DNA of 63,483 nt, filler included, from Hausera hauseri (GCA_046269625.1; 11 parts of 11 records of this genome joined end to end with filler, not necessarily neighbours in it); one strand, 5' to 3'; counted from the first letter of the whole stretch, positions 26,901 to 63,483 are shown. The notes: generated by a model from the sequence alone, not told the origin. Translations and numbers: made by a program.

Positions 26901-26949
26901 GTACTGAATTTTTCAAATCAAAATCGCAAAATGTTACATCTGGAATTAC

Positions 26950-30526: not shown

Positions 30527-30619
30527 ATTACATTAAAATTTTAATTAATTAATTTTAATTAAATTTTTTAACCAATTCCAAATTGGAATCTTAATTTAAA
30601 TTTTAAAATGTTTCTGATT

Positions 30620-30780: not shown

Positions 30781-31160
30781 AGAAAAAATCGAATTTTATT
30801 CGCTGCTTTTTCTTAAATAAAGCAGAACCGAAGGAAGAAAAAATAGATAAGTCATTTATCCAGAAATTTGATAAGAGGTCTGAACCCGTTGAACGTAAGA
30901 TTATTACATCACCAAACGATAATGATTTGAATTTTAATTAATAAGAAGTAAAATTCAATCAGGGTATTAAATTATTAGAAGACATCCCAGATGTTTCACA
31001 TAATAGAAGTAGTCCTCATACACCAGTCAAAGTTGTTCTGCAAAAAGAGAATAAAAACACTACTTTTTTCAAAATAGAAAATTTCGAGGATGAAGCTGTA
31101 AGAAATATTCGTGCGTTCGTTGAATTTAACGACAATTAAACAAATAACAATTTTCAAGTT

Positions 31161-32024: not shown

Positions 32025-32315
32025 TGCTACCAATCAGTTGAAGGAGAGTGTGAACGAAAAGGAAGAAAATTTTGTTTGTCAAGCAATCAATAAAAACTCA
32101 GACAAAACCAATATCAAACCAAATCGAAATGAGTTGGCAAACTACACGAAAATACTTTAGAAGGTAGCAGTATTATGTATTTAGAGGATAAATCAGAAGG
32201 CACGGGATTGCATAAAGAAATAAGTACCTCTCCGAAAAGTTCTTCACAAACTCAGGAATTTACTGACGAACCCGAAAGTATGAATTGTAAAGCTCCGATT
32301 GATAAAGGTGGGACT

Positions 32316-32498
32316 GATTTAGCTGAAGCATTACCGCATTTGGATGAAGTATTATCTGCTTTAGACACACTGAAACTTGCTGATATCACTAATGTTAAAA
32401 CTATGCAAAATCCACCTGGTGGGGTTAAACTCGTGATGGAAAACATTTATGTAATGAGAGAGAGAAAACCTGAAAGAGTTAATGATCTAAATAAACCC
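32316..32498 (+). pseudogene. Isolated axonemal dynein heavy chain stalk/MTBD fragment
   Basis: DLAEALPHLDEVLSALDTLKLADITNVKTMQNPPGGVKLVMENIYVMRERKPERV matches the DNAH3/7-type stalk. Confidence 0.8.
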
Positions 32499-36560: not shown

Positions 36561-36574
36561 AAAAATAAGTAGAA

Positions 36575-37612: not shown

Positions 37613-37708
37613 TGCGTCATAAAAATGTTGCGAATCAATATAAGGCTCTATTTTTAGTCTTAATACAAAACATAATGATAAAAATTTATTAACATTAAAT
37701 GAATATCA

Positions 37709-38311
37709 TCAGACAGAATAACAATACAACATTGAATATAGATTATATACAGTGATTAAAGGATATAATATGTCAAAATTCATACATATACGACAGGATA
37801 AATCAATAGACGGATGATGGAAGTATTCAAGAACAAAAGTTATAACAAAATATATACACGCGAGTAGAGAGTTAGTTAAGTATGTAATGTATATTTGTAA
37901 TACTATCTCTCGGCGCATTATGACCAGTAATCGTTCGCGTTCGTAGGGACTGGTCATAGGATCGTGCATCAGGATGTCATTGATGGTCAGGTTTCGATAA
38001 TTATGAGTCTCTGGTCGAATATCTGGTCGCCGCATCAGGATAGGGATTGCCCCATAGGTTCGGGTTAAAAGCGCAGTTATAAGAGGAGTCTCTTCGTATA
38101 ATCCATGAGCATAATTTACATCGAATAAATAAGTTCCATTGTCGAATTTTTTATTTAGGAAGGTTTCCAATAGTAGGAATCGTTTGAAGACTATTGCATG
38201 ATGTAAAGGTGTACTACGTAATTGGGTTTGGAAAATAGCTTGAAATACTTTGTTGTCGTAGGCATAATCGAATATCAGGATTGCCAAGTTATGTCGACCA
38301 TGTCGTATGGC
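37709..38311 (-). CDS. Ankyrin-repeat protein (5' partial)
   Basis: AIRHG, STPLHHAI, DVN....EETPLITAL, ILMRRPDI. Near-identical to the C-terminal part of 62767-63390. Confidence 0.8.
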   Translation of the reverse strand, partial: AIRHGRHNLAILIFDYAYDNKVFQAIFQTQLRSTPLHHAIVFKRFLLLETFLNKKFDNGTYLFDVNYAHGLYEETPLITALLTRTYGAIPILMRRPDIRPETHNYRNLTINDILMHDPMTSPYERERLLVIMRREIVLQIYITYLTNSLLACIYFVITFVLEYFHHPSIDLSCRICMNFDILYPLITVYNLYSMLYCYSV

Positions 38312-38411
38312 NNNNNNNNNNNNNNNNNNNNNNNNNNNNNNNNNNNNNNNNNNNNTTAATTAATTAANNNNNNNNNNNNNNNNNNNNNNNNNNNNNNNNN
38401 NNNNNNNNNNN
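38312..38411. other. Artificial contig linker
   Basis: Same 100-bp spacer. Confidence 0.98.
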
Positions 38412-38413
38412 AT

Positions 38414-41190
38414 AGAGTTGACGTAAAAGTCACTAAAGCCCAGACATTACTATCCACTCTAGAAGTAAACCCGAAATTAAAGAGAGCAACTCGGAGTCTA
38501 GAACGTACGAAGGATAAAATTAGCTTAGTAACGATTTACCGACTTAGAGAAAAACCGATTAGTGATCGAAGTAATGTCGATTTAGAAATATTGGGTATAG
38601 TCCTAACAGATATCCCTCCCTTAATGGAGATGATTAAACTTACGTTCGCCGTACCTAGACGATATACGAATTTAGAGAATCGTATTAAATTAGTAAATAA
38701 AATACGAGCACAGATTTATGAGTTGAGGAACCGTATTATTTTTCCAAGTCACGAGGATACTCAATATGTAATAAAAGCTTGTATCGTAGAGTTAGACGAG
38801 TACAAGGACGAGTTTAGTTATGTCGGACGAGTTATGAATTTCCTAAAAGGACCGGATGATGCGTTAGAAGATGACTACAAGATGCTAGATAAAGCCATAA
38901 TGGCGAAACCGGTAATCGCAAATCAATTATCGGAATGGTCCGAACTAGTAATGCGACTAACCAGATTGTTAGAAGATTGTAAAACAGAATTTCCGCAAAG
39001 CGATCCAACAGTGAAGAAGCAATTAGAGGAAAGTGCGCACAATTTAGCCACGTTGCGAATAGAAATAGACATCCGTACTCTATTTGAAGCGCTACGACAA
39101 CTAAAATTTATGGAACAGGAACGAGAAGCATCGACAATGGATGAAATCTACAAATTGATCGAAGAAACAAATTTTACGGAGAAACGGAATATGATTCACG
39201 ACGTAAATTAAAGTTACGGATTGTCCGGCTAGACGGGATTCAATATATAACCGGGAAACCAATCGACGAAATTTCTGTACCAGATATTGAAATCTTGGAT
39301 ATTTGCGCCGGATATCGAGATATGTTAACAGATGCAATAAGGTTTCTACACAAACCTAAAGAATGGATGGCCGGATCAGACCAGAACCTCCATACCAAGT
39401 TGATAGAAATCGGAAACGACCCACATTTTAGCTTTCAGGAGCACAAGTTTTTAGAGAAATTGTTGGATGCAATGGACCAGGATTCAAAGGTTATAAATGG
39501 GTTGTATGAGCTAGCCTATCTATTAGTGGAAATGGCAGAAATCAGTGATGAACAGATGAGGCAGTTGATGCCCAAATTACAGAAAGTAGAAGAAACATGT
39601 ATCAAAACGAAACAAAGGGAGACAAGGTTAGATGAAATAACAAAAGAGCTAGAAGTCTATCGGAACAAATATGCTCTTACCGAATCAGAGATTAAGAATA
39701 AACGAGAATTTGTACAAAGATGGCAAAAGGATGTGATTCTTGAATTGACATATTGTCACCAAAAAGGACTTATCGACTCTAACGAATTCGGTGAATTACT
39801 GAAAATGATCCAGTATGCCTGTGGGAATGGAAGAGGATTCCGAACTACGCAAATGAAAGAAATACAACCCAGATTAAAGGAAATTCGGGAAAACATTCAT
39901 AGAGCCAATACAACGTTAGTGGACTACCGATTTCCAGATGTCGGAAACGAACCCGAATGGGATGCATACTTCGATGAGATACTCGCCGGGAAGGCTACGA
40001 CTCCAGTACAACTGAACGAAATAAAAACAGGTCCGCAAAACAGAAGGTTCAACGTGGAGATGCTACTGGATTCAGCGCTAACTGAAAAGGATTTCATTGA
40101 GTTAATTAACGTAAATATTACTGAAAATAAACTTCGACAACTTATCCCTACTCTAACTAAATTATCTAGCGAAAGCACGATCTATTGTACGGTGCCGAAA
40201 CTTTTGATAAGGAAGTACGCTAAAATTTTGAGGGCTAAACCTGCGATGACGATAAAAGTAATGGTGTCATCCGAATGGATGGACGAAACAGAATGCGAGT
40301 TGCCTACATATTCCTACGTAAAGGACGTAAGAGAATGGCTAGTAGACAATAGCGGGACAAATAAGTTAAATTACAGATTTTACTTTAAAAGTAGAATATT
40401 AGATGACTTGGAACAATTGAGAGACGTCGGGATTATTCCCGACGAAACAAATCGGATAGTGGCAGTAATAGTTAACGAACAGACAAAAGAAGAAGCTACA
40501 CGTAAAACTAAATCAGAAAAATGCGAAGGACAAATCACGGGAGTCCGAGACGCCGCCCTGTATTTTGAGTATTTACAAACAGACGAAGATAAGGAACAAT
40601 ACGATATAAACTTAGTACCACTTAGTGAATCAATCACTAAAGGTTTGAGACCGAAACGCCCAGTAGGTCGGCCTAGAAAAGTGCGAGAAGAAATAGATTA
40701 CAACGGAGAGTTAATTAGAGAATTGAGGCAGATGTCGATCCCAACTCTTAGCACAGATAATGAAGAATTAAGCGAATTAATGAAAAATTTAATACGAATT
40801 GTGAATTATTCTAGTTTCCGAGGAGATATGTTGGATGATAAAGAAAAGATCATTTTCGATGCACCCAAAATGATTCGAAACTTGCGTTTTAAACTATCGA
40901 AAAGCAATTTAACTGATGAATCGGTAATGGAAAAGATCATGGTGGAAAACACGAATGAAGAATTGAGAAAAGTATTGCTATACTTAGCTATCAAAATAAA
41001 TCCTAATCAAGAGAGTGAAATCAATCGGGCTATAAGCTTAGCGTGGAGAGCAGCAAAAAGAATGCCTTGCAAAGTAAATTGGGTAAGACTATTTGACAAG
41101 GAAGAGGACAAACGAAATAATAATAAACTCGACGATATGTTGCGTAACCTGACAACATCAGACGTTGGAGGTCGAAAAAACGAATCAAAT
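38414..41190 (+). pseudogene. Large polyprotein region: helical/coiled-coil repeats, ubiquitin-like domain, AT-hook; one frameshift near 39205
   Basis: Open from the contig start. Ubl at 40246-40473 (VKDVREWL...YRFYFKSRILDDLEQLRDVGI), AT-hook RPVGRPRK at ~40657-40680. Continues in frame into the glycoprotein. Confidence 0.65.
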
Positions 41191-43000
41191 TTGCTAATAA
41201 GCTTTCTCACCTTAATAATGCTAATAAAGCACATAAGCGCGATAACCGTATATGATTGTGATAAGGTTAAGTTAGGACAGAGATATTCCTTAATTGATTT
41301 AGAAGTATGCGAGGATGCCAGACCGCACAAACTAGAAACAATATAGAAAAGTTACTTCCTGTATCAACAATAAGAAATGATATCGTTGGATGGAATGGAA
41401 TGTATGCTGAAAAGATCGCGTAGTATTTTTCACTGTGGGTTGATTCATGGACACTCATCTATAATTAAACCAATGACTCCATTAATTCCAATGAACTTAG
41501 AACGACAACACTGCAAACAAGCTAGAGAAAGAGGAAGAATACAATGGGATAGCATGCAATTGGAAATGTAACCCGGAAAAATAATTAGAGCATACAAAGT
41601 AGTAGCTGGAAGGTTGGATATGTATAACGGATATTGTAATGAAGCAGAGTACTATACCGGAAAAGGTTTAGAAACGAAAGTTGTGGTTGTGGATTTCTAT
41701 GAATCAGAAATGCAATCACAGAAGGTGATGTTTCATAGCGTCACTAAATTATACACGGAGAATCAAAAATGTCATTTACAAGACGGAATATATGCTTTTA
41801 GGAGCTCAGTTGCAATATGGGAACCTCCTTCTGCGAGAAATTGTAATTTTATTAAAATCAAAGAACTTAAGTTCAACGAGACTACAGGGACGAGATATGT
41901 GGACAAATCAGAAACTAACTCAAGAACACGCGAAGATGTATCGGAACACCCTAACCTACTATATTAATCTCGGATCCACGTGGACTAAAATTCATAAAAA
42001 AGAGATGATGACCCGTTGTGATGTAGTAATGTTCGCCACAAACTATGAAGAATTCTTTGTGGCTGAAAGGGAAATAAACGCAAAAACTTACAAATTGGAA
42101 ACGCAAGATGTTCGAATCGACGATTACCTGAAAAATAGAGACGATTACTTCTACTACAAAGGACAAGTTGGAATAACGGAATTACACCACAAAATGATAA
42201 TGGATGACTATAAATTGGATACAGAAATCATGAGAACTAAAATGGCTCTTATATATGCAAACCCAGAATTAGCTTCTCCAATAATTTCCATGAGAAAAGG
42301 AATTTTCGGTCGGGTCACAGGCCAAGTACTGCTAACATATGAATGTGAAAAGAGAGAAGTTCTTATCAACGTAGAAGAAAAACGTTGTATCCAGGAACTC
42401 CCTGTTATCAATCAGAATATTCCGAGATTATCTACGCCGTTGACGACAGTGTTGTTGGATAACGTGACACAACCAACCATTCTGAAAGATTGTAAGACGA
42501 GCTTAGGAGAACCAATGTTTAGACGTAGTGAAACAAATTGGGTTAGTTTACCTAATGGAGGTATTACTGCCGCTCCCAACAAGCTAACAGGGATAAATCT
42601 TGCAAAAGGAATTACAGACGATAAATTTCAAGACACCTCGTCAAAAGATATATATAGGCCGAGGGTAATCGAGGCCTTTAGACAATTTCTTGCCTTTCCA
42701 CGACAACGAACACATGAGCTAAATTGAGCTATGGCGTCGGTAGTAGACGACACCTGATATCAGGCTAAATGGAAATCATTACTTGGCGTAAACCATTATC
42801 AGAGGGTGACAACCGAAATACTGTATAAAATTTGGGGAAGATTTTTAATTTTTGGACAAGCCGCATCAGGATTTTTAGCAATGCAGTAATAAACGGATAC
42901 GAAGTATTTACGCTAACCGGATTTTCATGTAAAATTCTGACTGCAATCATAACGCCTTTTGGAAAATTTTTAAAAGCATACGAAGAGAGTAAATGGAAAT
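41191..43000 (+). pseudogene. Chuvirus (Jingchuvirales)-like envelope glycoprotein, disrupted
   Basis: Signal, then VYDC...SLIDLEVC, C...RSIFHCG..GHSS, W.PP....C, MAL...NP......KGIFGRVTGQVLLTYEC, CIQELPV......TP.T.VL, IWGRFLIFGQAASG and INGY....GFS. These follow the order I recall for chuviral G proteins. Several in-frame stops and at least two frameshifts. Confidence 0.8.
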
Positions 43001-43174
43001 CGGACGTAGAACGCCATGTAGGTTATTATAATTGTAAACGAAGAAGGAGACCGATATTCATACGGAAGCGGGAGTCTACAAAACCGAATATACGAAGAAA
43101 TAATTCAGATGATGACGAGCCTAAGGGAGGAGAAGCATTCTCAGGGATGAATAGACATAAGATGTACTCGGTCG

Positions 43175-43274: not shown

Positions 43275-44966
43275 CACAACCCATTGTGGTTTTACCACTT
43301 CATCAACATGTTTGTTTCTGTCAATAGGGCTGACTCCTTCCGGTACAGACATATGGGTGTGGGCTACACAACCGGAACATACGTCGGATGCATAACGGAA
43401 TCGAATGACACATTCTCATGCAGTGTGTATGACTGGACGAAGAGCGACATCACTGTGCCCGGCAGCAAATGTACGTATCTTACGAGGACATACTATCAAT
43501 CGAATTACTCGCTGATTAGTGAGATGCGTGGTACTGGAGACTTCAACATTACTAACAATACCTGGTATACAGTGGTAAGCAAATCATTGGGTGGAAGCAT
43601 TCGATGGGTGCCAACGCATCTTATTGGATCTTTGACAGTGACAGGAGTGAGTTCTTGTGTGTACCTGAATGACACGTTTATTGGTGTAGTCACTCTCACT
43701 TTCGATATCAACGCTATCCAACAATTCATGTCTGCTCATACCAGCGCGTCGGTAGATGTGTCATTTTTGGTTGATGCCCTAGGCTGGATTGTTGCAACCA
43801 CGCACCATGCGCCGTACGCCACCATGACAATAATACCAGCCAATGACACGCGGCCAGTTCCGTCAAACTGTATACGTTCGCATGAGAGTAATGGGCCTGT
43901 ATACCAATACTGTCGCGCCTCAGTATTTGCGTTTCCATATGCACCACTGAACGAGCTGGCTTTGCATTATTCTAATTACACGATGAATGGCACTGATGAC
44001 AACTCTGTGCTACTTCGATTAGGTGGTAATGATTTCTTTGTCTTTGTCAATGACATGCTTCAACTTGACGAGACAATGCCGCGGTGGAAGGTGATTGTGT
44101 TCATTCCGTCAACGAACGTGGATGGTGGGCTGACGTCTGGTAAGGCTGTGCCGATCTCCATTGTGTGTGCTTGTGTTGTTGTCATTGTTGTTGTTTTTGC
44201 ACTGCTTGCGTTCGTACTAACACCTCGAGGTCGGGACAATAAAAATGCTCCGAAGGATGAATCAGCACCCTTCACAATTGTGTTCACTGGTGTGGAGCAC
44301 AGCACTGAGCTATGGACTGAGGTTCCTGATTCGATGGCTGCCGCCATTAAACTACATCATTCTATAATCCGTGAGCTGATTGTGAAGCATCACGGGTACG
44401 AGGTGAAGACGATTGGTGACTCATTCATGATTGCATTTGTGCATGCTGCTGATGCTGTGTTGTTTGCTGCAGATCTTCAGACGACTTTCCTTGCTGATGA
44501 GCGATGGGACGTGTTGATAGATGTTATGTACAGAAGGTTTGCAATGGAGGGTAAGAAGGCATGTGTTGATGGTTCAAATGCGCTTGATGCCTTGACAGCC
44601 AAACTGAATATTGAGGAGTATGCATCGGGATGGCATGGGTTGCGTGTGTGTGTTGGGGTGAACTGTGGATTTGGTGAGGTCAAGAAGGATGTGACGACAC
44701 AAGGCTACGACTACTATGGTCCTGTTGTGAACACTGCCGCTCGTGTTGAGGCGATTGCTCACGGTGGGCAGGTGTTGATCACTCGAGCTGTGAAGGAGCA
44801 CGTTGTCGGAAGCACAAAGAATGTCGAGGCTTTTGACATAATCAATTCTGCAATGTCGCTTGGATCCGTTGCCCTTCGTGGTGTTCCTGAACCTGTGGAT
44901 GTTTACCAGTTGGACATCATCTCTGGACGAGTGTTTCCACCATTAGTGACTGTTACCGCATTCTGA
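43275..44966 (+). CDS. Kinetoplastid-type receptor adenylate cyclase with dCache-like ectodomain (5' partial)
   Basis: APKD..APFTIVFTGVEHSTELW, YEVKTIGDSFMIA, WHGLRVCVG, YDYYGPVVNTAARVE..AHGGQVL. TM precedes the cyclase domain. Intronless and higher in GC than the other contigs. Confidence 0.9.
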   Translation, partial: HNPLWFYHFINMFVSVNRADSFRYRHMGVGYTTGTYVGCITESNDTFSCSVYDWTKSDITVPGSKCTYLTRTYYQSNYSLISEMRGTGDFNITNNTWYTVVSKSLGGSIRWVPTHLIGSLTVTGVSSCVYLNDTFIGVVTLTFDINAIQQFMSAHTSASVDVSFLVDALGWIVATTHHAPYATMTIIPANDTRPVPSNCIRSHESNGPVYQYCRASVFAFPYAPLNELALHYSNYTMNGTDDNSVLLRLGGNDFFVFVNDMLQLDETMPRWKVIVFIPSTNVDGGLTSGKAVPISIVCACVVVIVVVFALLAFVLTPRGRDNKNAPKDESAPFTIVFTGVEHSTELWTEVPDSMAAAIKLHHSIIRELIVKHHGYEVKTIGDSFMIAFVHAADAVLFAADLQTTFLADERWDVLIDVMYRRFAMEGKKACVDGSNALDALTAKLNIEEYASGWHGLRVCVGVNCGFGEVKKDVTTQGYDYYGPVVNTAARVEAIAHGGQVLITRAVKEHVVGSTKNVEAFDIINSAMSLGSVALRGVPEPVDVYQLDIISGRVFPPLVTVTAF

Positions 44967-46247
44967 GGATGTGGCTATTTGGCTGATTGCTATTATGTCC
45001 TTGCGAATTGAATTTATTGCGAGACGTGCAACAGCGTCTTCGGTCGTGGACGGACCGGGGATACCCTGGTGCCGCGCGGAGGTAAAAATATTGCTAGTAT
45101 TTATTAGATGTGTTTTACTGGCTTGACGGTATGGGCAGCACATGTTGATTAGTATATACTGATTATAATGCGACGAGTGATGTCATGGTTGGTTATTGCT
45201 CAGTGACCGTATTACATTGATTTATTAGGGGTGCGTCTTTTGTCGAGGCGCGCTGTGGGGAATGACCATCTGCTGTCCAAGTGGGGCATTATGAGTGCGA
45301 GGATAGAGACTTGCTAGGCATACTATATTCGTCGTCTGGGGTTGTTGTGTATAATGAGTATATGAATAACGAGTGAGCTATTATGTTACATTGAAGTTAG
45401 AGTAATTTAGGAACCATGAAGGTTATCATATGAGGTATTTGTGCTGCTCTTGAGATATTTGTGTCTTATGCAGCTGATTCAGGTACTTTTTTAGGAACAG
45501 TATTACATTACTGTGATTAGCTGAAACTTGTTTTTGTTTAGAGGGATCTGTTTTTTTCCAGCTGCTTTTATGATGTACACTTACCAGCATCCTCTGGTGA
45601 TGCTAAGGTAGTTCAAGAATATCCAGATGAGCTTTTGTATGGGAGTGGTTGTGTTCTGACAGGAGATGGCTGCATATCATGTGAGAACCGTATGCTTGTC
45701 ATTATGTGTTGTGGTGACTAAATTCCATTCTGGCATGTATAATCTTTGCTTCTCCACTATGTTATCACTTATGATTCCTTTGCTTGTTTTGTTATTTAAT
45801 TTACTCTACAAGTGGATCACTGCATATAGCACGTCACTAGTTGAATACCAGACATCTCTTATTCATCTTTATGCTTGCCCTGTGTGGTTTCATGCTTGGA
45901 CACACGTTGTTATAGTTGACTTGCTGTGTGTTTATGGACATGAGCACATCTACAGGTAAGTGGTGTGGCACCCGTTTTGAGGGATTGTGCCTATGACAGC
46001 TGTTTTCAGCCTGGCGTGAGCAACACATCGACTGTGTCTCTGAGCTACATACGGTCAAAGCTGCACCTGAATGCTGACATGCAAGTGTGTTTGCTCCCGT
46101 GCATTGACTAACTACAGATACGTCCAAACGGTGTTCGTTGTTGTGACTGTACAGGACAGTCAGTGTGTGAGATGCGATGCCATGAAAACACAGAAGCGCA
46201 TTACTAGGTCAGCGGCCTGAATACGTGCACATCTGATGCGTTGTCAG

Positions 46248-47564
46248 ATGAAAGAGAAGACAGCTTTTGAGTTGTCCGTCTGAAAAGTGAGACTCAATAC
46301 TGTATTGGCCGTGAGTGTCTGTGCGTTGCTTATTGCTGTCAGTTCCCTGGTTCCCATGATCATTACCCTAGACACATTCACTGTGACTATGCAACCTTCG
46401 ATGTCAAGAGGCGCTTATGCAACATCGAGTGTGTTTCTCACGTACATAGAATATTATTTTTTGTTCCATCCCTTTCAATTTTTAACCAGTCGGGCTAACT
46501 CACTGTCGAGTCCGCCGCATCAACAGGAATGGCGAGACCCCGCACACAACCCATTGTGGTTTTACCACTTCATCAACATGTTTGTTTCTGCCAATAGGGC
46601 TGACTCCTTCCGGTACAGCCATATGGGTGTGGGCTACACAACCGGAACATACGTCGGATGCATAACGGAATCGAATGACACATTCTCATGTAGTGTGTAT
46701 GACTGGACGAACAGCGACATCACTGTGCCCGGCAGCAAATGTACGTATCTTACGAGGACATACTATCAGTCGAATTACTCGCTGATTAGTGAGGTGCGTG
46801 GTACTGGAGACTTCAACATTACTAACAATACCTGGTATACAGTGGTAAGCAAATCATTGAGTGGAAGCACTCGATGGATGCCATTGTATCTCATTGGACA
46901 TTTTGCGGTTGTGGGAGTGAGTGCTGGTGTGTACCTTGATGACACGTTTACTGGCGTACTCACTCTCAGTTTCGATATCAACGCTATCCGACAATTTATG
47001 TCTGCTCATAACAGCGCGTCAGTCGCTGTGTCATTTTTGGTTGATGCCCTAGGCTGGATTATTGCAACCACGCACCATGCGCCGCACGCCACCATGACAA
47101 TAATACCAGCCGATGTCACGCAGCCAGTTCAGTCAAACTGTATACGTTCGCATGAGAGTAATGGGCCTGTATACCAATACTGTCGCGCCTCAGTATTTAC
47201 GTTTCCATATGCACCACTGAACGAGCTGGCTTTACATTATTCTAATTATATGAGGAATGGCACTGGTGACAACTCTGTGCTACTTCGATTAGGTGGTAAT
47301 GATTTTTTTGTCTTTGTCAATGACATGCGTCAAGTTGACGACGCAATGCCGCGGTGGAAGATGATTGTGTTCATTCCGTCAACGAACGTGGATGGTGGGC
47401 TGACGTCTGGTAAGGTTGTGCCGATCTCCATTGTGTGTGCTTGTGTCGTTGTTATTGTTGTTATCATCGTCGTCATGGTAACTGGACGTGTTGGACCGCC
47501 AACTAGTGTCCAACCCCTTAGCCCGCTTCCAAGCAGGATGGGTGTTGCTATGCGGGACTCCTGA
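46248..47564 (+). pseudogene. Paralogous dCache receptor, truncated after the second TM (no cyclase domain)
   Basis: Highly similar to 43275-44190 from 46544 to ~47460. The ATG at 46248 is followed by an in-frame TGA at 46281. N-terminal TM present. Confidence 0.8.
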
Positions 47565-48044
47565 GGCAAATGGCGATGAAAATGTCTGAAGTAGCTGCTG
47601 AGTCTGTTCAGCTTTCTTAACACGAAATGGGTCTTCAAAGTCCTTGTTGGACAGCGCGACCCGTGCGCTGCTGTGGTGAGGCTGGCTGTTATACTGCGAG
47701 CTCTGTGTGCTCGGAGACGAGGATGAAATAGTCGACGCACCTGCAGGATAACCCAGGCCGTGGGCTGGAAGTTTATCAAACGAACGCCGAATGTAGCAAT
47801 GGGAACTGGCCTGCCGCTCTCCTGTAGACAGCAAAGGCGTGGGGGAACCTGGGATATCTTCAGTGTCTTTTGTAGAAGACTGGTGTTGTTGATGATGCTG
47901 CGAGGGATTGCGTTTCATAATGACCTACACTTCAGACTGGCACCTGATGATGATAATAAAAACATTTTCCTAACTGAAAACCTCAGGTAATTCATATTTT
48001 CGTAAAGGTAAATTGAAAACAAATGTTAAAAAAGGATAACAAAC

Positions 48045-48308
48045 CTTCATGCTATAGGCTCTGCGATTGGACGGCTGTACTATAACCTTGACCCCTGACT
48101 TCACAAGTTTCTTAATCTGTTGAGGGGAAAGTGGTGCTCGCCGCTCCCAAACATTCACTGTTTCTCTCCGGACAGCCATAACTGGTTGGTCGCTGGCCCT
48201 GCGTATATGAATACTGGGAAATGCTGACATAATTTTTCCTTTAAGGCAAGCCTTGCTAAATATTGGCAGCACATTCTGTTTAACTGGTGCATAAAGCTGG
48301 GAAACCAT
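48045..48308 (-). CDS. AASS: Alpha-aminoadipic semialdehyde synthase, first coding exon
   Basis: Mitochondrial-type presequence, then [20 protein letters not shown]...[17 protein letters not shown], then a GT donor at 48043-48044. Confidence 0.9.
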
Positions 48309-48341
48309 ATTTCTGACTATCCTTTACTGAATGCTTTGCAA

Positions 48342-48441: not shown

Positions 48442-49222
48442 AATTCTAAGCCATTTTGCGGTTTTAGTGGTTTTCGTGCTTTGTTTGATATGGGTAGGGA
48501 AGTCGATCAAGTTTTGATTTATTTGGCACGATTCTTAGCGCATGCCATTGGGAACAAAGGAACAATTTCCATTTTAATAGGCGAAATTGAGTAATATTTT
48601 GACGTAGTACATGAAAAATAGACTAGGTATATACAAAGGAACAAAGTAGCGCATTAATTTGTTTTTGTTTCACAAATTATTACCTGAGCACCATCAACTA
48701 AAAGGGCCAAGGGCAAAACTCGCGGTGGGCACCACACTAACCCCAAGTGTCTAAGCTGAAAACTATAATGCAAAGAAAGAAAGAAAGGAAACCGCAAAAA
48801 GAAACAGTGTGATTTGTCTATGAGGTTTTTATGTGTAACAGACGTTGTATTCCCTCAATATTTAGTTGTCTAATGTAGGTAATTAATGTCACTGACTTAT
48901 GATGTCTCATTGCTTTTGTGTCTGGCTGCTGGAGTAGTTTGGGAAAAACAATATCAGATTTTGCACTGTTGAGTGTTATGTCCTATTAATGTAAGACAGA
49001 AAAAGGAAAAGAAGTGACTGAAGGTGAATGATTGAAGTTGTCTAGGAAAATACCAGAAGGTAATGAGTTGGAAGAAGTAGGAACAGATTTATGAATAGAA
49101 ATATAATCTGGATTAGTAAGAGGAATAAGATTGGAAGGTGACGTAGATGCAGAAACAGAAACGGGGACAGAAGGAGACGTGGGAGCGAGAAAGGAAGTTG
49201 CTGTTTTAATTGTAAAAGTGTC

Positions 49223-51690
49223 TTAAAGGTAAAAAGCTGCTTTTACGTTGCTAATATGAACCGCGAATTCTTTGCCATCTTTAAGGATTATAGAGTTGTG
49301 AGAATGTACTTGGATTAGTTTATAGGGTCTAAAATACTGTGGTTGAAAACAGCACGGCGCTTGATTTTTCAGCCAAATGAATTTTGTGGAATATATTACA
49401 TCTGGTAAATATGCCTTGTCATTGTGTAACACCTCAAATACCAGTCTTTGCTGACTGTAACGAAGTGGTTTTGTGCTGCTCGTATTGTTTCATCTGTAGG
49501 TTTGTCTTCTAAAATGGCCAGTTTGAACAATTACCGTATAGGAGCACCAAATAGGGCTTCGGTAAATGAGCATCCTGTAGAAGTGGATGAAGTGTTCTGC
49601 CAGCCAAGCAGAATACACGGAAGGAGAGTTGTCCAGTTTACATTGGACTATACTGGAAGTTTAAGCGATATTTTCAGTGTTCGGTGGAACCGCTGAAGAA
49701 GGTCATACGATTGAGGATGGTAAGATGTTGTATGAATATGACTGATTCCCAGTCGGTTAACTAAGGATTCAAACAGATTGGATTCGAATTGAGGACCTTG
49801 GTCCGAGATAATGAAACAAGCAGATCGAAACCTACTAATCCACGTACGAATGAAAGCATCCGCTATTGTGTCAGTACTTTTGCTCCTCAGAGATATGGCT
49901 TTTGGCCATCGCCAAGAACGATCCAGCATGCTCAGAATGAATTGATGACCGTTGTCTAGTGGAAAAGGACCGACGAGATTCAAAACGAATTCAAAACGCG
50001 ATGTGCGGGGACGTAGTGATTTTAAATGCTTTGTGATTTTATTTTTCTGACAAGCCACACACTCCTTAACCCATGATTGCACATCAGAACGCATTGACGG
50101 ACAAAGTACCTGTCGTTGAAGTAAGCGAAAAGTGGCCTTGGCACCATTGTAGTGTAATGAATGTACGCTATCAAATGCTTGTTTTTGCAAAGATGGAGCA
50201 AGAATTATTTTGGATTATCCTGGTTTGGAAGGGTTTAATGCCACGCTGTCAACGATGTTGCAAGACTTGAAAAAATTAAGAATATCTGAAGGTGGCGGGT
50301 TTTCTTGAAGTTTTGCTGAGTAAAAAATTTGATGTAGATAAAAAATGGCAACTAAATTATTAACACTGTTGACATATTTGATATCGAAACTAAATGTTGA
50401 CAAGTATGATACTTGTGGCACTTGACGTCTGGATTTGTATTTCATAGACATAATATTGACTAAAGCCTTGCGATCAGTTGGGATAACAAAACTGCGAGCT
50501 GTGAGTAAGTGGTAGAAGTGTTTTAAGGCCAGACCTATTGCCAATAGTTCTCGATCGAATGTGACATAACTAGTTTCTGGTTTCGCTAGCTTTGTAGAGA
50601 AAAATTCGAGTGGTTGGTTTTCACCTTTGTATAACTGATGTAACACAGCGCCTTGTGAGGTAGTTGAAGCGTCTGTGGTAAGGATAAGTTCAGCGTCAGG
50701 TTTAGTTAATGCCAGAATTTCTATGGTTTTGAGACCTTCGCGCAATTTATCGAACTTACCAACCAATTTAATTGTCCATTAAATTGACTGATGTTTTTTT
50801 CCACTTCTCAAATGTGCGAAAGATGTCATGAGTTTCGAACAGTATGGAACGTATTTGTGGATGAAGTGTAAAGTTCCTAAAAAGCTCCTCATTTCTGTTG
50901 TGCATTTTGGTAGTTGTATGTTTTTGAGAGCTTCCACACAGTCTGGCTGAGGAGAATGTCCATTTGCTCAAATGACGTGTCCGAGAAAGTTAATACGCTT
51001 TTGGATGAAAAGGCATTTTTCAAAATTAATCTGGAGATTATGGTGGTTAATTTGTTGGGAAATAGAACGAAGGTATTTAGCGTGCTGTTTGGTAGAAGAC
51101 GAAAGGTTTAAGATATCTTCAATGTATGGATGCGCGAAAGTGAAATCCGAGGGAACGAAATCAATGTGACGTTGGAAGGTCTGCGCGGAGTTGCATAAAC
51201 GAAAAGGCATATAAATATATTCATGCAGGCCCAAAGGTGTTGTAACAGCAGTTTTCTTGATATCATCTAATGCTACAGTAATTTGATGATATGCCTTGAA
51301 TAAATCTATAGTTGAATATAGTGTAGTCGAGTTGAACCGGTGCAGGATATCCTTAATTTGTGGTAAAGGATATGCATCCATTATAGTTAAAGTGTTGAGC
51401 TGACGGTAATCGCTGCATGGTATAAAAGATTCAACCTTTTGCACAACGTGCAAAGGCGAAGATCACGATGATTCATATCTGCGTACAATGCGGGCACATT
51501 CAATGTCTAGAAATTCAGCTTCAACAGTTTACCTGCGACGAGGTGACATTGGGCGTACCTTTTAACGAGTAATTCTTTGGTGTTGCGTTATGATGTAGTG
51601 AAAAGTACTGTTTACAGGCGTGAAAGTTCGGTCCTTCTGGATTAAGTGAGGACATGGAGTGTTGATGTATTGCCGCAGACATGCAGGCAA
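49223..51690 (-). mobile_element. Degenerate Gypsy pol (RT, RNase H, integrase)
   Basis: DYRQLN...DAYPLP, DLFKAYHQI, MPFRLCNSAQTFQR, LTTDAS, FDRELLAI, H..H...C..C, SDQGPQFES, TTSYHPQ. A PPT-like GGGG run with TGTGG at ~48736-48746 may mark the 3' LTR start. Confidence 0.92.
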
Positions 51691-51921
51691 TTATGAGAAA
51701 TTGNNNNNNNNNNTGAATGGTGCTGTTGACTCAGTATGTGTAGTTGCAAGTGATGTTTGCGAGTTATTTGCTGGTATGAAATCAAATGGAGTTTTGGTGT
51801 AAGATAGTAGTATTAAGGCTTCAATATTTATTAATACTGTCGCCATTATTCATTTATGTACAAAATCATTTTTGTTTATAACACAAAGAAAAAGAACAAC
51901 AAATTATCATTATCATTAAAC

Positions 51922-52375
51922 TTAAGTGGTTTTATTCATATCACCGAAGTCAGATTATTCGCGTTCATTTCGTATTTCACTGACGGAAAATAATCCCAAT
52001 TGTTCCGGCGATATTACACTGAATTCAGCCTCTTTACACGAAAGAAAAATGATTTGTGCCATTTCATTGCCTTTCAAAATATCATACAATAGTCCAGAAT
52101 GATTTTCCAGCAATACTCTAATTTCACTACAGAAGTCTGAATCAATTATTCCGCCAACAACAGTCAGTCCAAGGTTTTCCAATCCGCTTTTCGAAGTGAG
52201 TTGACAGTAGTAACCGTATGGAATCGTTAATCGAATACCAGTCGTTATACATTTGATTGTTCTGTCCACTACTGTCGTATTGATTTTAGAAAACACATCA
52301 CACCCTGCACGTGTTTGCTATAACACGTCTCAGTACAGGGGCACTTTCACCTGTTAAAATAATCTTTACATCATT
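51922..52375 (-). pseudogene. dut: Trimeric dUTPase, intronless, disrupted
   Basis: AGCDV (motif 1), SKSGL (2), GIIDSDF (3), MAQIIF (4). Motif 5 is broken by a stop (RE*SDFG), and there is a frameshift near the N-terminus. Confidence 0.85.
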
Positions 52376-55732: not shown

Positions 55733-58700
55733 TTGCAAAAACATAGCCGACACATTTCCTTTGCTGTATTCACGTTGGAAGCAGCACTCGTCACTCCAAC
55801 AAAACAAAACATTAAATTTCTCATAAACACCGGGGCAGCAATCTCTCTACTGCCACCAACACAACACGTCCAAAACAATTACACTTCACAAAAGCAACTG
55901 TTCATGGCGTCCGGTGAACCTTTACAAATTTTTGGTGTTTCCAAATTAACGTTTACTCTTCCACACTTCTCAAACACATTCACATGGAAATTTACAATAG
56001 CCAACGTACGCACACCTATATCGGGTTCAGACTTTCTGTCCCACTACAATTCACTTGTACATTGCAAACGATGTTTCTTAAAATGCGGAAATTATCTGAA
56101 TCAAATTAGCAGCATTTCGGTGACCACCCCGGCAATCGCTTCCAGCAACTCAATACTGAAAAACACGACTTCCGATTTAAATTATTTTTATAATCACTCA
56201 CTATACAGAAATTTTTATTATGGTAACAAATAAGGTATTGCCAACTGCGTGGCACCTATTACTGACAGTACCGCTGCCAACACCATCTTCAACACGAACA
56301 TCCTGCACCAAATACCACCCAGTCACAATACTTCGTCTACAACTCATACCTCAACTTCATCCAGTTACGATGCATCGACACCATCGGATAACCTTTCATC
56401 GTTGCCTTCTGATCTACAGCAAAATATTTTGTCTTCCTGCACGCGTCTGTTGCAGAAGGACAAATCATTCATACCACCTCAATCCACCTTCCATCACATA
56501 GTAACAGCACATCAAAGACCAATATGTCAAAAGGTTCGTCCGCTATCGCCTCGTCGCAGTGAAGGCTGAGTTGCTGGAACTGGAAAAATCAGGCATAATC
56601 AGAAGATCCAAATCCCCCTGGTCTTCACCAGTACATGTGGTTCCAAAAAAAGATGGCACCTTTCGCCCATGCGGTGATTACCGCTAACTCAACATCATAA
56701 CAACAATGGATGCCTACTCTCTACCATTAATCAACGATATCCTTCACAGGCTCCATGGTTCGACCATTTTTTCCTGCGCTGATTTACACAAAGCATACCA
56801 CCAAATTCCGGCGGCCCCAGCAGACTTTCCGAAAACGGCTATCATTACACCTTCCGGCCTTTTCGAATACATCTTTATGCCTTTTGGACTCCGTAGCGTT
56901 TTCCAGACCTTCCAAAGGCCAATATGCCTTTAAGTTTAGACTTTGCTTACCCCTATATCGATGATATCCTAATTGCACCATCTTCCTCGAAACAACACTC
57001 CGAACACTTACGTCTAATCTTCCAACGCTTGCACCAAAACAACTTGCAAATTAATTTCTCCAAATGATCTTTTTTCAACATAAGGTCAACTTCCTAGGAC
57101 ATGTTATTAGCTCCTCCGGACATTCACCTCAGCCATAGCGCATCACACAGCTCAAAAACATACAACTACCACGTACATCCACAGAGATGCGTTCTTTTCT
57201 CGGAATCTTAAATTTTATTAATAAGTATGTTCCACACTGTTCCACTCTAACTGCTCCATTTGGCTCACTAAGCTCTGGCAAGAAAAAACGTCCTGTTCAA
57301 TGGACTGCCAAACTAGTCAACGCTTTTGATCACCTCAAAGGCAATTTAAAAACCGTAGAAATCCTGGCCTATCCAGACTCCCGTGCAGAACTCTTCTTAA
57401 CCACAGACGCATCCGCAACAGCTGCAGGTGCTGTCCTCCGTAAAGTCAAAAGTGGATCCCATAAGCCATTAAAATTCTTCTCTCGAAAATGCACAGCACA
57501 ACAGCAAAGATATTCCACCTTTCATCGAAAGTTGCTTGCAATGGTCCTTGCCGCAAAACACTTTAAACATCTACTAACTGCACGAGTTTTTACAATACAA
57601 ACGGACCACAAGCCCTTGCTTCAAATTCTCACCACCAAATCGCCTTCTTCACGTCAGGAGAGGCAAATGTTGTGTTTGTCTACATTTAATTTTGAAATTA
57701 AGCACCTAAACGGAGTCGACAATTTAGTAGATGACTTTTTGCCCCGATGGGTCAGCTCGATTGATTTCACATAAATTTTTCCTCAATCCAAACTTCAACA
57801 AAATCAGCCACCTCTTGACATCCTTAAATCTTTTAAATCGTGCAAAACCATCGACTGTGTGGCCTTTGACACTTCCGAACCTAATAATCCTAAGGTCATC
57901 CTTTCTGAATCGCTTCAAAAAGAAGCATTCAACAACATTCATTCGTTGCATCATCCCGGTACCAAGGCCACTTTTCTACTTTTACAACGCCAAGTAGTAT
58001 GGCCGTCGATGTGCTCTGATGTGCAGGCATTGGTTAGACAGTGTGTGACATGCCAAAAATACAAAGTTACTAAGCACTTAAAGCCACCACTATATCATTT
58101 TCCCTGCACGTCTCGTTTTAAATCTGTTCACATTGATCTTGTAGACCCACTACCCTTAGACAACGGCCATTAGTTCATCCTCACAAAGATGGACCGTTCC
58201 TCGCGATGGCCAGAGGCTGTCCCGCTTTAGAGAACTAACACAGAAACAATCGCAGACGTTTTCATCCGCACTTGTATCAGCAGGTTTGGATCACCTCGCC
58301 ACATCATTTCGGACCAAGGTCCACAGTTTGAATCCAACCTGTTTAAAGCTCTTATCAATCGATTGGGAATTAACCACATTCACACGTCACCATGTGAAGA
58401 TAAATTTAAAAAGGATATTAATGTTTAAATTCAATTTAAGGTTAATTCAATAAATAGCCAATAGAAAGTCAGGAAATTTAGAAAAGGATGAAAATAAGAC
58501 TCATTTAATGAGTGGAGGCGATAATTGTTATACAAACTTTTATAATGAATCTCTTATGAATAATTCTATTTTACAATCATGAAGTCAGGTTGAGGTTGGG
58601 ATGGTAGAGACTCAATCTACTAACAATCATATCATTATCAATTGAATGGCCTTCTCGAACGCTTTCACCGAACGATGAAAACGTCTCTCAAAATTCTTGC

Positions 58701-58876: not shown

Positions 58877-59776
58877 GCTGGACCTACTACTTCAAAAACA
58901 AATATAGACGTTCCGAAAAAAGATGGGCAGAGTAAAGTAGACTTAATGGATGATTTATTAGGGCGGACATCAAGATTTAGGAAAAGTTTAGTCAATCAGT
59001 ATGCAGAATATAATGCAGTTTCTGAAGCTTCATCAGTCATCTCTCCTTCATCACCTTTACCTTGCCAGCGGCCAGTGCGACACAGCATTTGTCTTGGATC
59101 TACTATGTCAAATATAAACAGAGACATTCTTAAAAAAGGTAAACAGAGTAAAGGAAACTTGATGGATGACTTGCTAAGGCGAACCTCAAAATTTAAGAAC
59201 CGCTTGGATAATCCATATACAACAGAATGCAGTACAGTTCCTGAAACATCTTACGTCATCCCTCCACCTCCTTCATCACCTCCACCTTACCAGTTACCAG
59301 TAAGTCACAGCTTATGTGCTGGACCTACTTCGTCAAAAATAAATGGCGACATTCATAAAAACGGTATTCAACCATCTTCATCTTGCCAACGGCCTATGGA
59401 AAATAATTTTCCTACTGGAAAAATTAAGTCGAAAATAAATGGCGACGTATGTAAAGACGTTCAGCAGACTACGGAAAATTTAATGTCGGAATTATTAAAA
59501 ATGACTGGAAATATACGGAAACACTTGGATAATGAATATACCACAGAGTGCAGTGAACTTCCTGAAGTATCTTGTATTGTACCACCGCCACCTCCTCCTC
59601 CTACACCAACTCTATCTTGCCTACCGCCAGTTGGAAATAACCTTTCTTCTGGATCAATCAAGTCCAAAATAAATGGAGAAATCGGAGAGATTAAAGGAGA
59701 TTTAATGTCGAATTTATTGGAGCAAACTAAACACTTAAGAAGAGAGTTGGATGCTCGATATACACATCAACAATAA
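58877..59776 (+). CDS. Tandem-repeat protein with polyproline tracts and [DN]LM[DS]xLL helices (5' partial)
   Basis: Open from the contig start. Repeat units begin at 58877, 59093, 59318, 59414 and 59648. Four LM..LL..T...R/K..L helices and two long PPPP tracts. Confidence 0.7.
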   Translation, partial: AGPTTSKTNIDVPKKDGQSKVDLMDDLLGRTSRFRKSLVNQYAEYNAVSEASSVISPSSPLPCQRPVRHSICLGSTMSNINRDILKKGKQSKGNLMDDLLRRTSKFKNRLDNPYTTECSTVPETSYVIPPPPSSPPPYQLPVSHSLCAGPTSSKINGDIHKNGIQPSSSCQRPMENNFPTGKIKSKINGDVCKDVQQTTENLMSELLKMTGNIRKHLDNEYTTECSELPEVSCIVPPPPPPPTPTLSCLPPVGNNLSSGSIKSKINGEIGEIKGDLMSNLLEQTKHLRRELDARYTHQQ

Positions 59777-60129
59777 AGGTTATGATGAAAAAGCGTTTTT
59801 GACTCCATCTAGTATTTATATTGTTTCAGAAAATTTTGAAATTAATATTAATTATGTTCACAGTTCTTTTGTAAATTTTTAAATAAAAATATTGATATTC
59901 AGTCGTGGTTCGATGTCGCCAAGTGTGGTACTGTCAACAACCTTAATTCACTCGACGAAATCACTTCATCGAATACCATTTTCAATTCGACCATTTTACA
60001 CCAAATACCACTTGACTGCACAGCACCAAACAATTCACATATCGCATCCGCTACTACTCAAGCCGCTTCACCATCATCACCGAATCTCTCACAGCTGCCT
60101 ACAACTTTACAGCCATTCGTCAACACATC

Positions 60130-60545
60130 ATGTCAACGAGTACTCAAAAAGACCGTACGTTTACCCCTGCAAACAGCATTGTACATAACATAATTACACA
60201 GCATCAACGACCAATACGCCAAAAGGTACGACCACTGTCATCCCGTCGTAGACAGTCTGTAGAAGCCCAATTTCTTGAATTAAAACGCTTCGGCATAGTA
60301 CGCCGTTCCAAATCTCCTTGGTCATCACCGTTACACGTTGTACAAAAAGGACGGCACTTTTAGACCATGCGTTGACTACCGACAGTTGAACACCCTTACT
60401 ATCATGGATGAGTACCCCTTACCACTTATCAAGGATATCTTGCATTGCCTTAATTCAACTACTATTTATTCGACCATCGATTTGGCCAAAGCATACCACC
60501 AAATACCGGTGGCACACGAAGATATATAAAAAAACTGCCATAATT
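60130..60545 (+). mobile_element. Gypsy RT N-terminal fragment
   Basis: [47 protein letters not shown]. Breaks off after KTAII. Confidence 0.88.
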
Positions 60546-60636
60546 TTAATTTCATTTGAAATTGTACAATGATCGTAAATACGAATATTTGAAGAACACA
60601 ATTTTTCAAAAACAATACTTACATATATAGTTATTT

Positions 60637-61299
60637 TTGGATGGGCCAATGTCGGCACCACACCGCTACCTCTATTGGATACAGATAATACGCCAACCTT
60701 ATGAACCACCTCTTAAACAAGGAACATTAGCCGTGTGTCACATAACTACAATTGAAGAGCGACACAACGTCTTTACCAAACCACAAACAACGACTAGCAA
60801 AAGCAAGATATTAGCAGAAAACAGATTGCCCAACATTACAACAAATCAAGAACGCGAATCGTTATTATTGGTAACCACCATACCCCCTTTTATCATCACA
60901 ATTATCTTAACACCGATACTGATCCCATGTATCAGAAGACGTCTGCAAACGAGAAAGAATACCGCCTCTCGCAAAATACGATTGAGTAATAAATTAATAA
61001 CTAAACCTCTCAATTACATCGTCTCCAGTCCTAACGTAGTAAGAAATGGCCCAAAATATCATCGGGTGATTTTACCCTTGAGTATATTAGTTTGCTGCAT
61101 ACCAAACGCATTAACACAGCTAACTTTAAGTCCTCAGAAAATAACATCAAACTTGTCCAATCAGATATTACCCAGTACATTTTCAGATTTTATGAAATTT
61201 CTAAAAGGAAATCCGAAAACAGAACCATGGGATACCCAGGACATTGCACCAGGAAACCTTTTCATCCAATATAACCATAGAAAAGGTGCATACTTATAA
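60637..61299 (+). CDS. Membrane-protein segment (TM, basic tail, second hydrophobic stretch), env-like polyprotein remnant
   Basis: T-rich stalk, LLLVTTIPPFIITIILTPILIPCI, RRRLQTRK, then VILPLSILVCCIPNALT. Same layout as 13100-13530. Confidence 0.45.
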   Translation: MDGPMSAPHRYLYWIQIIRQPYEPPLKQGTLAVCHITTIEERHNVFTKPQTTTSKSKILAENRLPNITTNQERESLLLVTTIPPFIITIILTPILIPCIRRRLQTRKNTASRKIRLSNKLITKPLNYIVSSPNVVRNGPKYHRVILPLSILVCCIPNALTQLTLSPQKITSNLSNQILPSTFSDFMKFLKGNPKTEPWDTQDIAPGNLFIQYNHRKGAYL

Positions 61300-61716
61300 A
61301 ATTTTTCCCTCAACAGAATAAAAAGTACAATGACGGACCTATAAAAGAAGAATGGGGAACACTAACAGTATAAAAAATCAAAAGCAATGTGCACATCTAC
61401 AACCACCTACAAAGAAAACTGTTGTCAAGTTACCCCTGAATCTATATATTCAGTATAAATACATACATCGAGAAGTAAGGAATTGCCTCTTATCGAAAAT
61501 CGTACAATTGAAATAATCATACCTACAGAAACAAGACAGCTACACTATCCTTAACAGATAATTCACAGGAACAAAAGGAGCAAACCAATATTGATATATT
61601 ATTCCTACAAGAATGAATATTTATAGGCCAACCTAACTATAAGAATCAGTGCCTACTAGTTGAATTGGATAAAAAAATACCAAAGGGTAAGGTAATGCAA
61701 ATAACCACCCGATCCG

Positions 61717-62800
61717 TTGATACCTTATCACAGTAACAACATCCATTACTCCAGGGAACACAACCAATCAGCCGGAATATTTGCACGTCCAGATCTGGAA
61801 TACTCACTAATATTGGCCATGTTTCGTCTCGTAAATTTTATATGGAGAAGTAATGTAAAAGGAATTGAAAGAAAAGCACCAAAAATCCTATGCACTCCCA
61901 CAGTTACAGACAATCAACGAATTAATGCAAATATATTTTACGAAAATGAAATTTTACTGGTAGCAACACAAATTAGTAGAACACACTATGCCCTGTCCTG
62001 CGCCACGAAACGTTATAGCAAGGAAATGTATACCCTAGAGGTCACAAGCCCACAATCGCCGATATCATGTATGAAACACGACAATCGAAAATTACTCCTA
62101 ACAGTACAGTTACAATCCTCTTGTCCAAATATCTTTTGTCTGAGTAGTTTTCGCTATACTGTACATAACAAAATTCTTCACATAATAGCAGGATTACGAC
62201 AAACCCCGGAACGAATGAAAGTAATTCCATTTAGATCACTGGATATTTATCTTCAAGTAAGATCTGACTGTGTAATGTTCATTTATCTAATCTCGATTTT
62301 ATTGTCACATTAGATAACGCCAATGAGGCTTGCTTTCTAATCACCAGTACCTACGATGAATGTACTCAATTATTATTCAGTTATCCTTACTCATTCAATA
62401 TCCAGCTACCCTACTATGACCCAGAACAGTTGTATTAGTAGAGATCAGTGCACTCAAAAGAGGAGTACATTCACTGTTTCGATTTCCAACACTAGAAGAG
62501 GTAATGAAAAGAGGAAAATTCATTTTTATAAAATCTACCGCCCCACCCGAAAACAATCAGACACTGACTGTCATATTACCGTCAGTTGGACCAATGAAGC
62601 AACCCCACACAGATTACAATATATTCTTGCTAATAGAAATAGCAGCACCCACTGTAATTAAATTCGCAATATCGGCCTTCTCTTTTGGAGCAACATTTGA
62701 TAACGAACCTTTCGAAATCGCTTTGACCAGTTTCGAATATGATTTCAAAATCTATGGCGATGACAAATGGTTATCATCACCAAAGAAGATGAATGCTACC
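61717..62800 (+). pseudogene. Frameshifted coding region of unknown beta-rich domains upstream of the ankyrin ORF
   Basis: Overlapping plus-strand ORFs with a recurring I.LP...N....EI motif. Confidence 0.35.
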
Positions 62801-63390
62801 CTTATGTAGGAAACAATGAGGAACAAATCCTGCCAAAGGCAGAACGTTACATGTTATGCTGCACCGACGAACCAGCTAACCCAATGGATTATACAACAGT
62901 AAAGAACGTCGAAGCAACTGCCCTAAAGTTAGCAGTAGCATCAGGAAATGAAGAAAAAGCCAGGGAAGCCATAATACAACTAGGCGATGAAGCAGCTGAA
63001 GCACTGAAGTTCCAAGATACGAACGGCAACACCATCGTTCACTTAGCCATTATGAGCGTGTCTCACAATTCGTTTATACTCATGCTCATTCAGACACATG
63101 GGCCCTTACATTTAACCAACGTGGATGGATACATTCGTTTACTACTCGCTATACGTCATGGTCGACATAAACTTGCAACCCTAATATTCGATTATACCTA
63201 CGACAACAAAGTGTTTCAGGCTATTTTCAAACCACAAATACGTAGTACCTCACTGCATCATGCTATAGTATTCAAACGATTCCTCCTACTGGAAACCTTC
63301 CTTGATAAAAAATTTGACAACGTAACCTACATATTCGACGAAAACTGCACGCATGGCACAAATGAGGAGACTCCCCTCATAACTGAGTAG
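62767..63390 (+). CDS. Ankyrin-repeat protein, 3' truncated
   Basis: TALKLAVASGN, DTNGNTIVHLAI, NVDGYI.LLLAIRHG, TSLHHAI, EETPLI. Homologous to 37709-38311. Confidence 0.85.
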   Translation: MVIITKEDECYPYVGNNEEQILPKAERYMLCCTDEPANPMDYTTVKNVEATALKLAVASGNEEKAREAIIQLGDEAAEALKFQDTNGNTIVHLAIMSVSHNSFILMLIQTHGPLHLTNVDGYIRLLLAIRHGRHKLATLIFDYTYDNKVFQAIFKPQIRSTSLHHAIVFKRFLLLETFLDKKFDNVTYIFDENCTHGTNEETPLITE

Positions 63391-63483
63391 GGAAATTGGA
63401 GCGCACTGGGTCACCCCCCCCCACGGATCGATAATCAATATTGTATGGGAATTTTATATGGGGAATTTTGAAAATCAATAATT

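Follow-up and report, generated by a model that had tools for sequence, protein, structure and literature searches.

Two pieces of DNA from Hausera hauseri (GCA_046269625.1) carry overlapping parts of a multigene cassette, which is most likely derived from a cargo-bearing LTR retrotransposon with an unusual, conserved set of three accessory genes. The window, i.e. the whole stretch of 63,483 nucleotides that was analysed, consists of separate contigs strung together via N spacers; one cassette piece lies on the contig 58877-63483 (plus strand) and the other on the partner contig 30527-38311 (minus strand). Taken as a whole, the cassette is probably the 3' accessory region of an LTR retrotransposon, either autonomous or mobilized in trans, that is expressed via spliced or subgenomic RNAs. 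Both pieces would be decayed 3'-end remnants of one old LTR-retrotransposon family from an AT-rich invertebrate. Ahead of a purine tract and the 3' LTR, this family would encode, on the same strand, an ankyrin protein (~236 aa), a beta-sandwich fused to a putatively dead DEDDh domain (~350 aa) and a triple-RING protein (~425 aa), with a membrane-protein region farther upstream in at least part of the family. Copies would have spread by reverse transcription, using their own pol or one supplied in trans, and the accessory ORFs would be translated from spliced or subgenomic messages. PMC5408684 describes additional 3' ORFs of LTR elements and, for the rotifer ORF3s, their expression through splicing.

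The ankyrin gene shared by the two pieces

The ankyrin-repeat ORF is the point at which the two pieces meet. Its 5' two thirds, from subfamily copy 2, are found at 62854-63387 (+; Pfam Ank_2, E 1e-8), and its 3' part, from subfamily copy 1, at 37900-38311 (-). The overlap, 63148-63385 (+) against 38311-38074 (-), extends over 238 bases without a gap (E 3e-58). A preliminary reading made from the sequence alone (hereafter the sequence-only reading) had called the copies nearly identical; however, they agree in only 80.7 % of the DNA and in 64 of 79 residues (81 %), with a dS of ~1.0, and thus they are old subfamilies under selection rather than near-identical copies. The same reading had proposed past purifying selection from the excess of third-position differences, and the alignment that it called for bears this out, as mismatches at codon positions 1, 2 and 3 number 13, 5 and 28 across the 79 codons (Fisher p 6e-12). 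The overlap has a dN of 0.098 and a dN/dS of 0.10 (bootstrap 0.03-0.20), the underlying dS being a rough value near saturation (pS 0.55).

P0004, a 236-aa ankyrin protein that was found with the upstream query, is 70 % identical to the N-terminal part, present only on the contig 58877-63483, and 78 % identical to the C-terminal part, present only on the contig 30527-38311. The joined order put forward by the sequence-only reading therefore holds for the ankyrin gene, which P0004 spans across both pieces; P0004 spans that gene only and says nothing on wider gene order, because it sits on a 1,695-base contig. Since the pieces lie on contigs that are joined by N spacers, the gene order across both of them is one that we infer. 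Once joined, the pieces span ~5.6 kb, in agreement with an earlier estimate of about 5.5 kb of cargo. What is not supported is that the same cargo is fixed in every copy, for the upstream part has several-fold less depth than the ankyrin gene and is without a protein homolog.

In copy 1, the ankyrin frame continues beyond the end of P0004, with stops at 37711/37708. Because P0004 ends earlier, the hydrophobic stretch behind the copy 1 repeats is probably read-through. Another protein, P0005, was dropped as a relative, being a generic ankyrin match. In copy 2, the alignment of the two ankyrin copies breaks at 63387/63388, and the frame ends at 63388, interrupted by the start of a different repeat of very high copy number. 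This unrelated repeat, 63388-63483 (+), cuts the ankyrin ORF (last-bin depth 72,743) and is presumably the end of a DNA-transposon-like or MITE-like element.

Downstream genes and the candidate 3' LTR

Behind the ankyrin gene on the partner contig, 36575-37651 (-) encodes an N-terminal beta-sandwich fused to an ISG20/RNase T-like DEDDh domain, an assignment that draws on homologs as well as profile and fold matches. The ORF lacks a start codon where its homologs begin; three intact homologs (57-64 % identical, from 1949 candidates) share its stop position, and the four subfamily-level versions are 58-71 % identical in pairwise comparison. The beta-sandwich, at approximately residues 65-133, is cupin/jelly-roll-like, with unspecific matches (Z 5-6). 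All four PDB profile matches to the ORF are DEDDh nucleases, each of them weak (E 0.06-0.37), with ISG20L2, SDN1, the PolC exonuclease and ISG20 as the best, while Pfam RNase_T is matched by P0001 at E 0.005 and the Atlas returned RNase_T clusters at 0.83-0.86. Based on a model with a pLDDT of only 38, Foldseek matched ISG20L2 (E 2e-4) and VIA-align matched ISG20 (Z 6.6, rmsd 4.8, 126 aligned). None of the 4 copies has an acidic residue at the aligned ExoI and ExoII positions, and ExoIII was judged from its known motif only. By its residues, the DEDDh domain is predicted to be catalytically dead, and since ExoI and ExoII are changed in all four copies, the enzyme would have died before the subfamilies split and yet have been kept.

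The next ORF, 35285-36544 (-), has three RING-type Cys clusters and a Pro-rich linker (Pfam zf-C3HC4, E 3e-7) and is interrupted by an internal stop at 35500. Three homologs among 510 candidates, P0006-P0008, are 56-64 % identical to it, and the four subfamily-level versions are 57-66 % identical pairwise. Clusters 2 and 3 retain the full Cys/His set, and cluster 1 is without its second ligand in both full-length versions. Two intact 425-aa RING ORFs on different contigs are identical at 422 of 425 residues (99 %) and may represent young copies or alleles. The homologs of the pseudo-exonuclease and of the RING protein sit on contigs of the same three sizes (19467, 3286 and 2652 bases), with P0001 and P0006 both on a 19,467-base contig. 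This match, which is one of contig sizes and not of DNA, argues that the two genes sit together in three more subfamilies. Because the cassette ORFs have homologs that are distinct proteins, each with a start of its own and a common stop, the cassette is a row of separate intronless ORFs. A single polyprotein covering the whole cassette, as might be read from the downstream ORFs all lying in one frame, was discarded on these grounds. No relative was confirmed in contig collections (four viral scans and one prokaryote scan); the sole metagenome match, L001, is a false positive inside a bacterial gene. Scans for tRNAs and for Rfam families, hammerhead ribozymes included, gave no match.

The RING ORF spans a 14-nt polypurine tract (35304-35291, minus strand) that is directly followed by TG, and it stops just inside this TG, the start of a candidate 3' LTR at 34975-35290 (-). 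The TG start of the candidate is firm, its end may lie at 35041 or 34975, and it contains a 27-nt internal direct repeat; the window holds no second copy of it. A purine run followed by TGT, a pattern chosen post hoc, occurs once in 51 kb over both strands versus 0.12 expected under a dinucleotide model. The C-over-G bias, which is -0.18 and -0.29 in the cassette, -0.23 to -0.31 in the gypsy pieces of the window and ~0 in host ORFs (0.01 for CBP, -0.03 for dynein), ends at this tract, flipping from -0.31 to +0.25 at the purine tract/TG point. The tract and the TG encode the nine C-terminal residues of the RING ORF, which the window shares with P0006 and P0007, whereas the stretch preceding them differs in length. 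As judged from these sequences, an ORF end that encodes a purine tract plus TG and is conserved in three subfamilies is a hallmark of an LTR-element 3' end.

Among the other contigs of the window, the host ORFs for CBP/p300 (20447-24912, minus strand) and dynein heavy chain (26458-30234, minus strand) identify the host as an AT-rich animal, the dynein frame containing in-frame stops at 29143, 28591 and 27106. Nucleotides 43275-48341, with a GC of 0.46, hold two dCache plus adenylate cyclase genes in tandem (94 % alike), which we take to be of kinetoplastid type and probably from a co-sequenced protist. The entire contig at 7086-11242 is a T-rich short tandem repeat with an AT skew of ~-0.82.

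Upstream DNA, copy number and origin of the cassette

The region upstream of the ankyrin gene, 60541-62853, begins with an AT-rich junction (60541-60630, plus strand) that is repeated in the sequencing run, has a poor coding score and shows variants at 60591 (14 contigs) and 60617 (6 contigs). Within the junction, 60612-60630 (+) offers a branch-point-like heptamer and an AG directly before the next frame, an arrangement that we regard as splice-acceptor-like. The 222-codon open frame that follows, 60631-61299 (+), has two hydrophobic segments around a basic loop, starting from 60856 and 61066 (hydropathy 1.81 and 1.89), and gave no Pfam or PDB match and no homolog. An integrase tail from 60631 onward was considered but is not supported, as the 222-aa frame shows no likeness to an integrase tail of the window. 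Elsewhere in the window, 13805-15362 (-) has an integrase tail, then a segment resembling a signal peptide and another ORF, which together form a third, unrelated env-like gypsy end. The remainder of the upstream region, 61300-62853 (+), is a decayed coding region, Cys-containing and predicted to be beta-rich, with open pieces at 61705-62313 and 62420-62809; by codon score its best frame switches several times, and it is crossed by stops. Just 5' of the ankyrin start, 62821-62850 (+) loosely resembles the end of the RING ORF with its purine tract (35318-35285, minus strand), a likeness that may be due to chance or may be the trace of an older 3' end behind which three genes were added.

No protein homolog of the upstream region was found among 1.84 billion representatives, and none of 273 candidates passed as a longer protein matching it; an 811-residue read-through query recovered two proteins, both of which match the ankyrin part. 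There was likewise no Atlas match, PDB sequence matches were none or had E >= 0.39, and a single-sequence model (pLDDT 40) had no viral fold match under E 0.001. The membrane-protein part of this region may be env-like, although searches by Pfam, PDB, Atlas and fold gave no match for it. According to the review PMC5718144, an ORF3 need not be env. On a separate contig, 38414-43174 (+) contains long helical ORFs and then a decayed fusion glycoprotein of Monjiviricetes (chuvirus) type (PF24664, E 2e-17); it has a G-rich bias that differs from that of the cassette and is probably another env-bearing retroelement.

Copy number was approached through summed contig depth in run X1, possibly the sample that the window itself comes from; such depth is not copy number itself. 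It amounts to 4-7 on the neighbouring host ORF at 58877-59800, lies at 195-1308 in 13 of the 14 bins that cover 60725-62880 and reaches 3479-7090 over the ankyrin gene; over the decayed region 61300-62853 it ranges from 381 to 1308, dropping to 56 in the bin 62573-62726. These depths show that the cassette is repeated, with copies numbering roughly in the tens to hundreds. Of the statement that it is 'multicopy and therefore mobile', the first half thus stands; for the second, no second LTR, target duplication or link to pol was seen in the window. The upstream DNA is continuous with the ankyrin gene here, as a 724-base difference-free piece runs from 62237 to 62960, and over a short stretch also in another copy, where a diverged piece (42 differences) runs from 62777 to 63058. 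Because its depth is several-fold lower than that of the ankyrin gene and it has no protein homolog, the upstream part may be more diverged, often deleted or limited to some subfamilies. The single-copy ORF end at the left of the same contig, 58877-59776 (+), has four short amphipathic repeats and Pro-rich linkers, with no Pfam match, and presumably resembles WH2/WASP-type actin regulators.

To the left of the cassette lies a frameshifted gypsy-type pol fragment (PR-RT linker and RT start) at 59920-60540 (+; left edge approximate), which at the DNA level is 68-69 % identical to the window's two gypsy elements at 51702-51248 and 56492-56815. It is truncated, as had been suggested, being cut at ~60533-60540. 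The further suggestion that it belongs to a different family is supported in part, in that its depth is 21,000-39,000 over 59955-60416, i.e. 15- to 200-fold above that of the upstream cassette, and 31 contigs diverge from the window at 60533 to continue as ordinary RT. The strand bias of the fragment resembles that of the cassette, and a related gypsy at 48442-51703 has no such accessory ORFs after its integrase. The RT fragment may adjoin the cassette without being related to it, may be what a large internal deletion left of the same element, or may stem from an assembly join. As counterpoints to the LTR-retrotransposon reading, this cut and much deeper fragment is all the pol that adjoins the cassette in cis, and the 5' end, with PBS, 5' LTR and target-site duplication, is absent from both contigs.

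The lack of a pol link in either piece is also what would be seen in a non-autonomous LTR derivative, i.e. cargo between two LTRs that has no pol of its own and is moved in trans by the abundant gypsy family. That very abundant RT family, with an equal C-over-G bias, is indeed present, and non-autonomous derivatives are described in PMC6431247. However, the retention of all ORFs under purifying selection to a dS of ~1 in several subfamilies is easier to understand for an autonomous lineage, and the short contigs would simply miss the 5' part. Taken separately we judge this reading unlikely, although it falls under the best explanation, whose confidence partly includes it.

A mis-assembly, in which the contig 58877-63483 would combine a non-adjacent RT fragment, a cassette fragment and a repeat end, is about equally doubtful. 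Three repeat classes of very unequal depth do meet within 3.5 kb, and no crossing of 60533-60640 is seen among the 8 of 5602 pieces listed. On the other hand, difference-free pieces cover 58903-59247, 61737-62027 and 62237-62960 at single-copy depth, the last of them linking the upstream region to the ankyrin start, and the argument concerns only the RT junction and not the family.

Large DNA viruses often carry ankyrin, RING and DEDDh genes in tight intronless arrays. This is a point for an endogenized large DNA virus or Polinton-like remnant that has been amplified, with the purine tract and TG arising by chance or from a neighbouring insertion, and the beta-sandwich weakly matches viral jelly-roll proteins (best E 1.6e-3, TM 0.15, from a low-confidence model). 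Yet neither contig holds a core DNA-virus gene, the four viral-contig scans returned no relative, and the ORF end encoding the purine tract and TG is conserved across subfamilies, making a viral origin improbable.

Least probable is a host family of ankyrin or ankyrin-RING paralogs expanded by segmental duplication beside merely neighbouring upstream DNA: the several-fold greater depth of the ankyrin gene, the dip to 56 between the two regions and the upstream proteins without homologs would fit it, but the exonuclease and RING genes recur together, so that sharing extends beyond the ankyrin exon, the upstream DNA likewise occurs as a repeat, both copies in the window are broken or cut, and the window's host ORFs are without the C-over-G bias. 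The cassette is a repeat family and not a host ankyrin paralog, because of its pseudo-exonuclease and RING relatives, the conserved purine-tract/TG ORF end and a depth far above single-copy.

Possible functions and comparison with known systems

In the LTR retrotransposon favoured above, the three accessory proteins would act together as a host-manipulation kit. More weakly, we infer from folds that the RING protein would work as a ubiquitin ligase, with an adaptor role for the ankyrin protein, and that the dead nuclease would bind RNA ends, as a shield or decoy. The last of these roles is proposed because Maelstrom and EXD1, inactive DEDD derivatives, keep RNA binding and act in piRNA biogenesis, as stated in PMC5408684; Maelstrom resembles the pseudo-exonuclease in structure (Z 5.1-5.5). 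A bolder version, which we hold to be rather unlikely, sees in the cassette an undescribed LTR lineage as complex as the vertebrate lentiviruses. It would have a new env-like membrane protein and a three-gene counter-defence module, in which the dead ISG20-like domain binds either RNA ends or small-RNA machinery, while host restriction factors would be directed by the ankyrin and triple-RING proteins towards proteasomal degradation; the RING pair with 99 % identity would then mean recent spread.

To our knowledge, most invertebrate LTR elements carry no more than a single additional gene behind pol. Three or more accessory genes that form a stable set and are selected across subfamilies only ~60 % alike would make an invertebrate counterpart to the complex retroviruses, and the cassette would be a candidate for a transposon-encoded counter-defence against host RNA silencing. 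P0001, P0004 and P0006 are intact natural versions of all three proteins, and therefore ligase activity and RNA binding are directly testable. This gene set was not found described in the literature searched, a body of work with most subscription papers and Repbase reports outside its scope.

Complex retroviruses have 3' accessory genes, and the lentiviral nef overlaps the purine tract. They share with the cassette small host-interaction genes at the 3' end, the last of which crosses the purine tract into the LTR, a likeness that is one of analogy only. Among cellular enzymes, the DEDDh exonucleases of the ISG20/ISG20L2/REX4 type resemble the cassette domain in fold and in a conserved central segment; however, identity is ~16-20 %, and the ExoI/ExoII acidic residues are those replaced in all four copies.

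Burro/GYPSM1, a giant gypsy-like element of planarians (PMC6431247), provides RING and ankyrin domains in an invertebrate LTR element with accessory ORFs, as here, and these domains have been read as tools for meddling with host ubiquitination. In Burro, however, they lie inside an ORF1 of ~4,900 aa between gag and pol, together with BIR, MATH, BCL2 and env, whereas the cassette has separate 3' ORFs beside a purine tract and a dead DEDDh domain. No Pfam match to BIR, MATH, BCL2 or env was obtained in the scanned pieces of the 5.6 kb, which belong to an incomplete and partly decayed element. The same source places a dUTPase before RT in Burro and in rotifer elements; elsewhere in the window, a dUTPase (51958-52317, minus strand; E 7e-17) precedes a gypsy pol by ~250 bases, with a 10-N gap in between.

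The bdelloid elements Juno and Vesta carry a DEDD-superfamily nuclease as an extra 3' gene and have TM-type extra ORFs too (PMC5408684). Their ORF3, usually a single one, is RNase D-like and of DEDDy type with catalytic residues intact, whereas the cassette domain is ISG20/RNase T-like, has lost its acidic residues, is joined to an extra beta-sandwich and belongs to a set of at least three accessory ORFs; the words 'Ankyrin' and 'RING' are absent from the text of that paper. The cassette is thus closest to the planarian Burro and bdelloid ORF3 elements, and is a member of neither.
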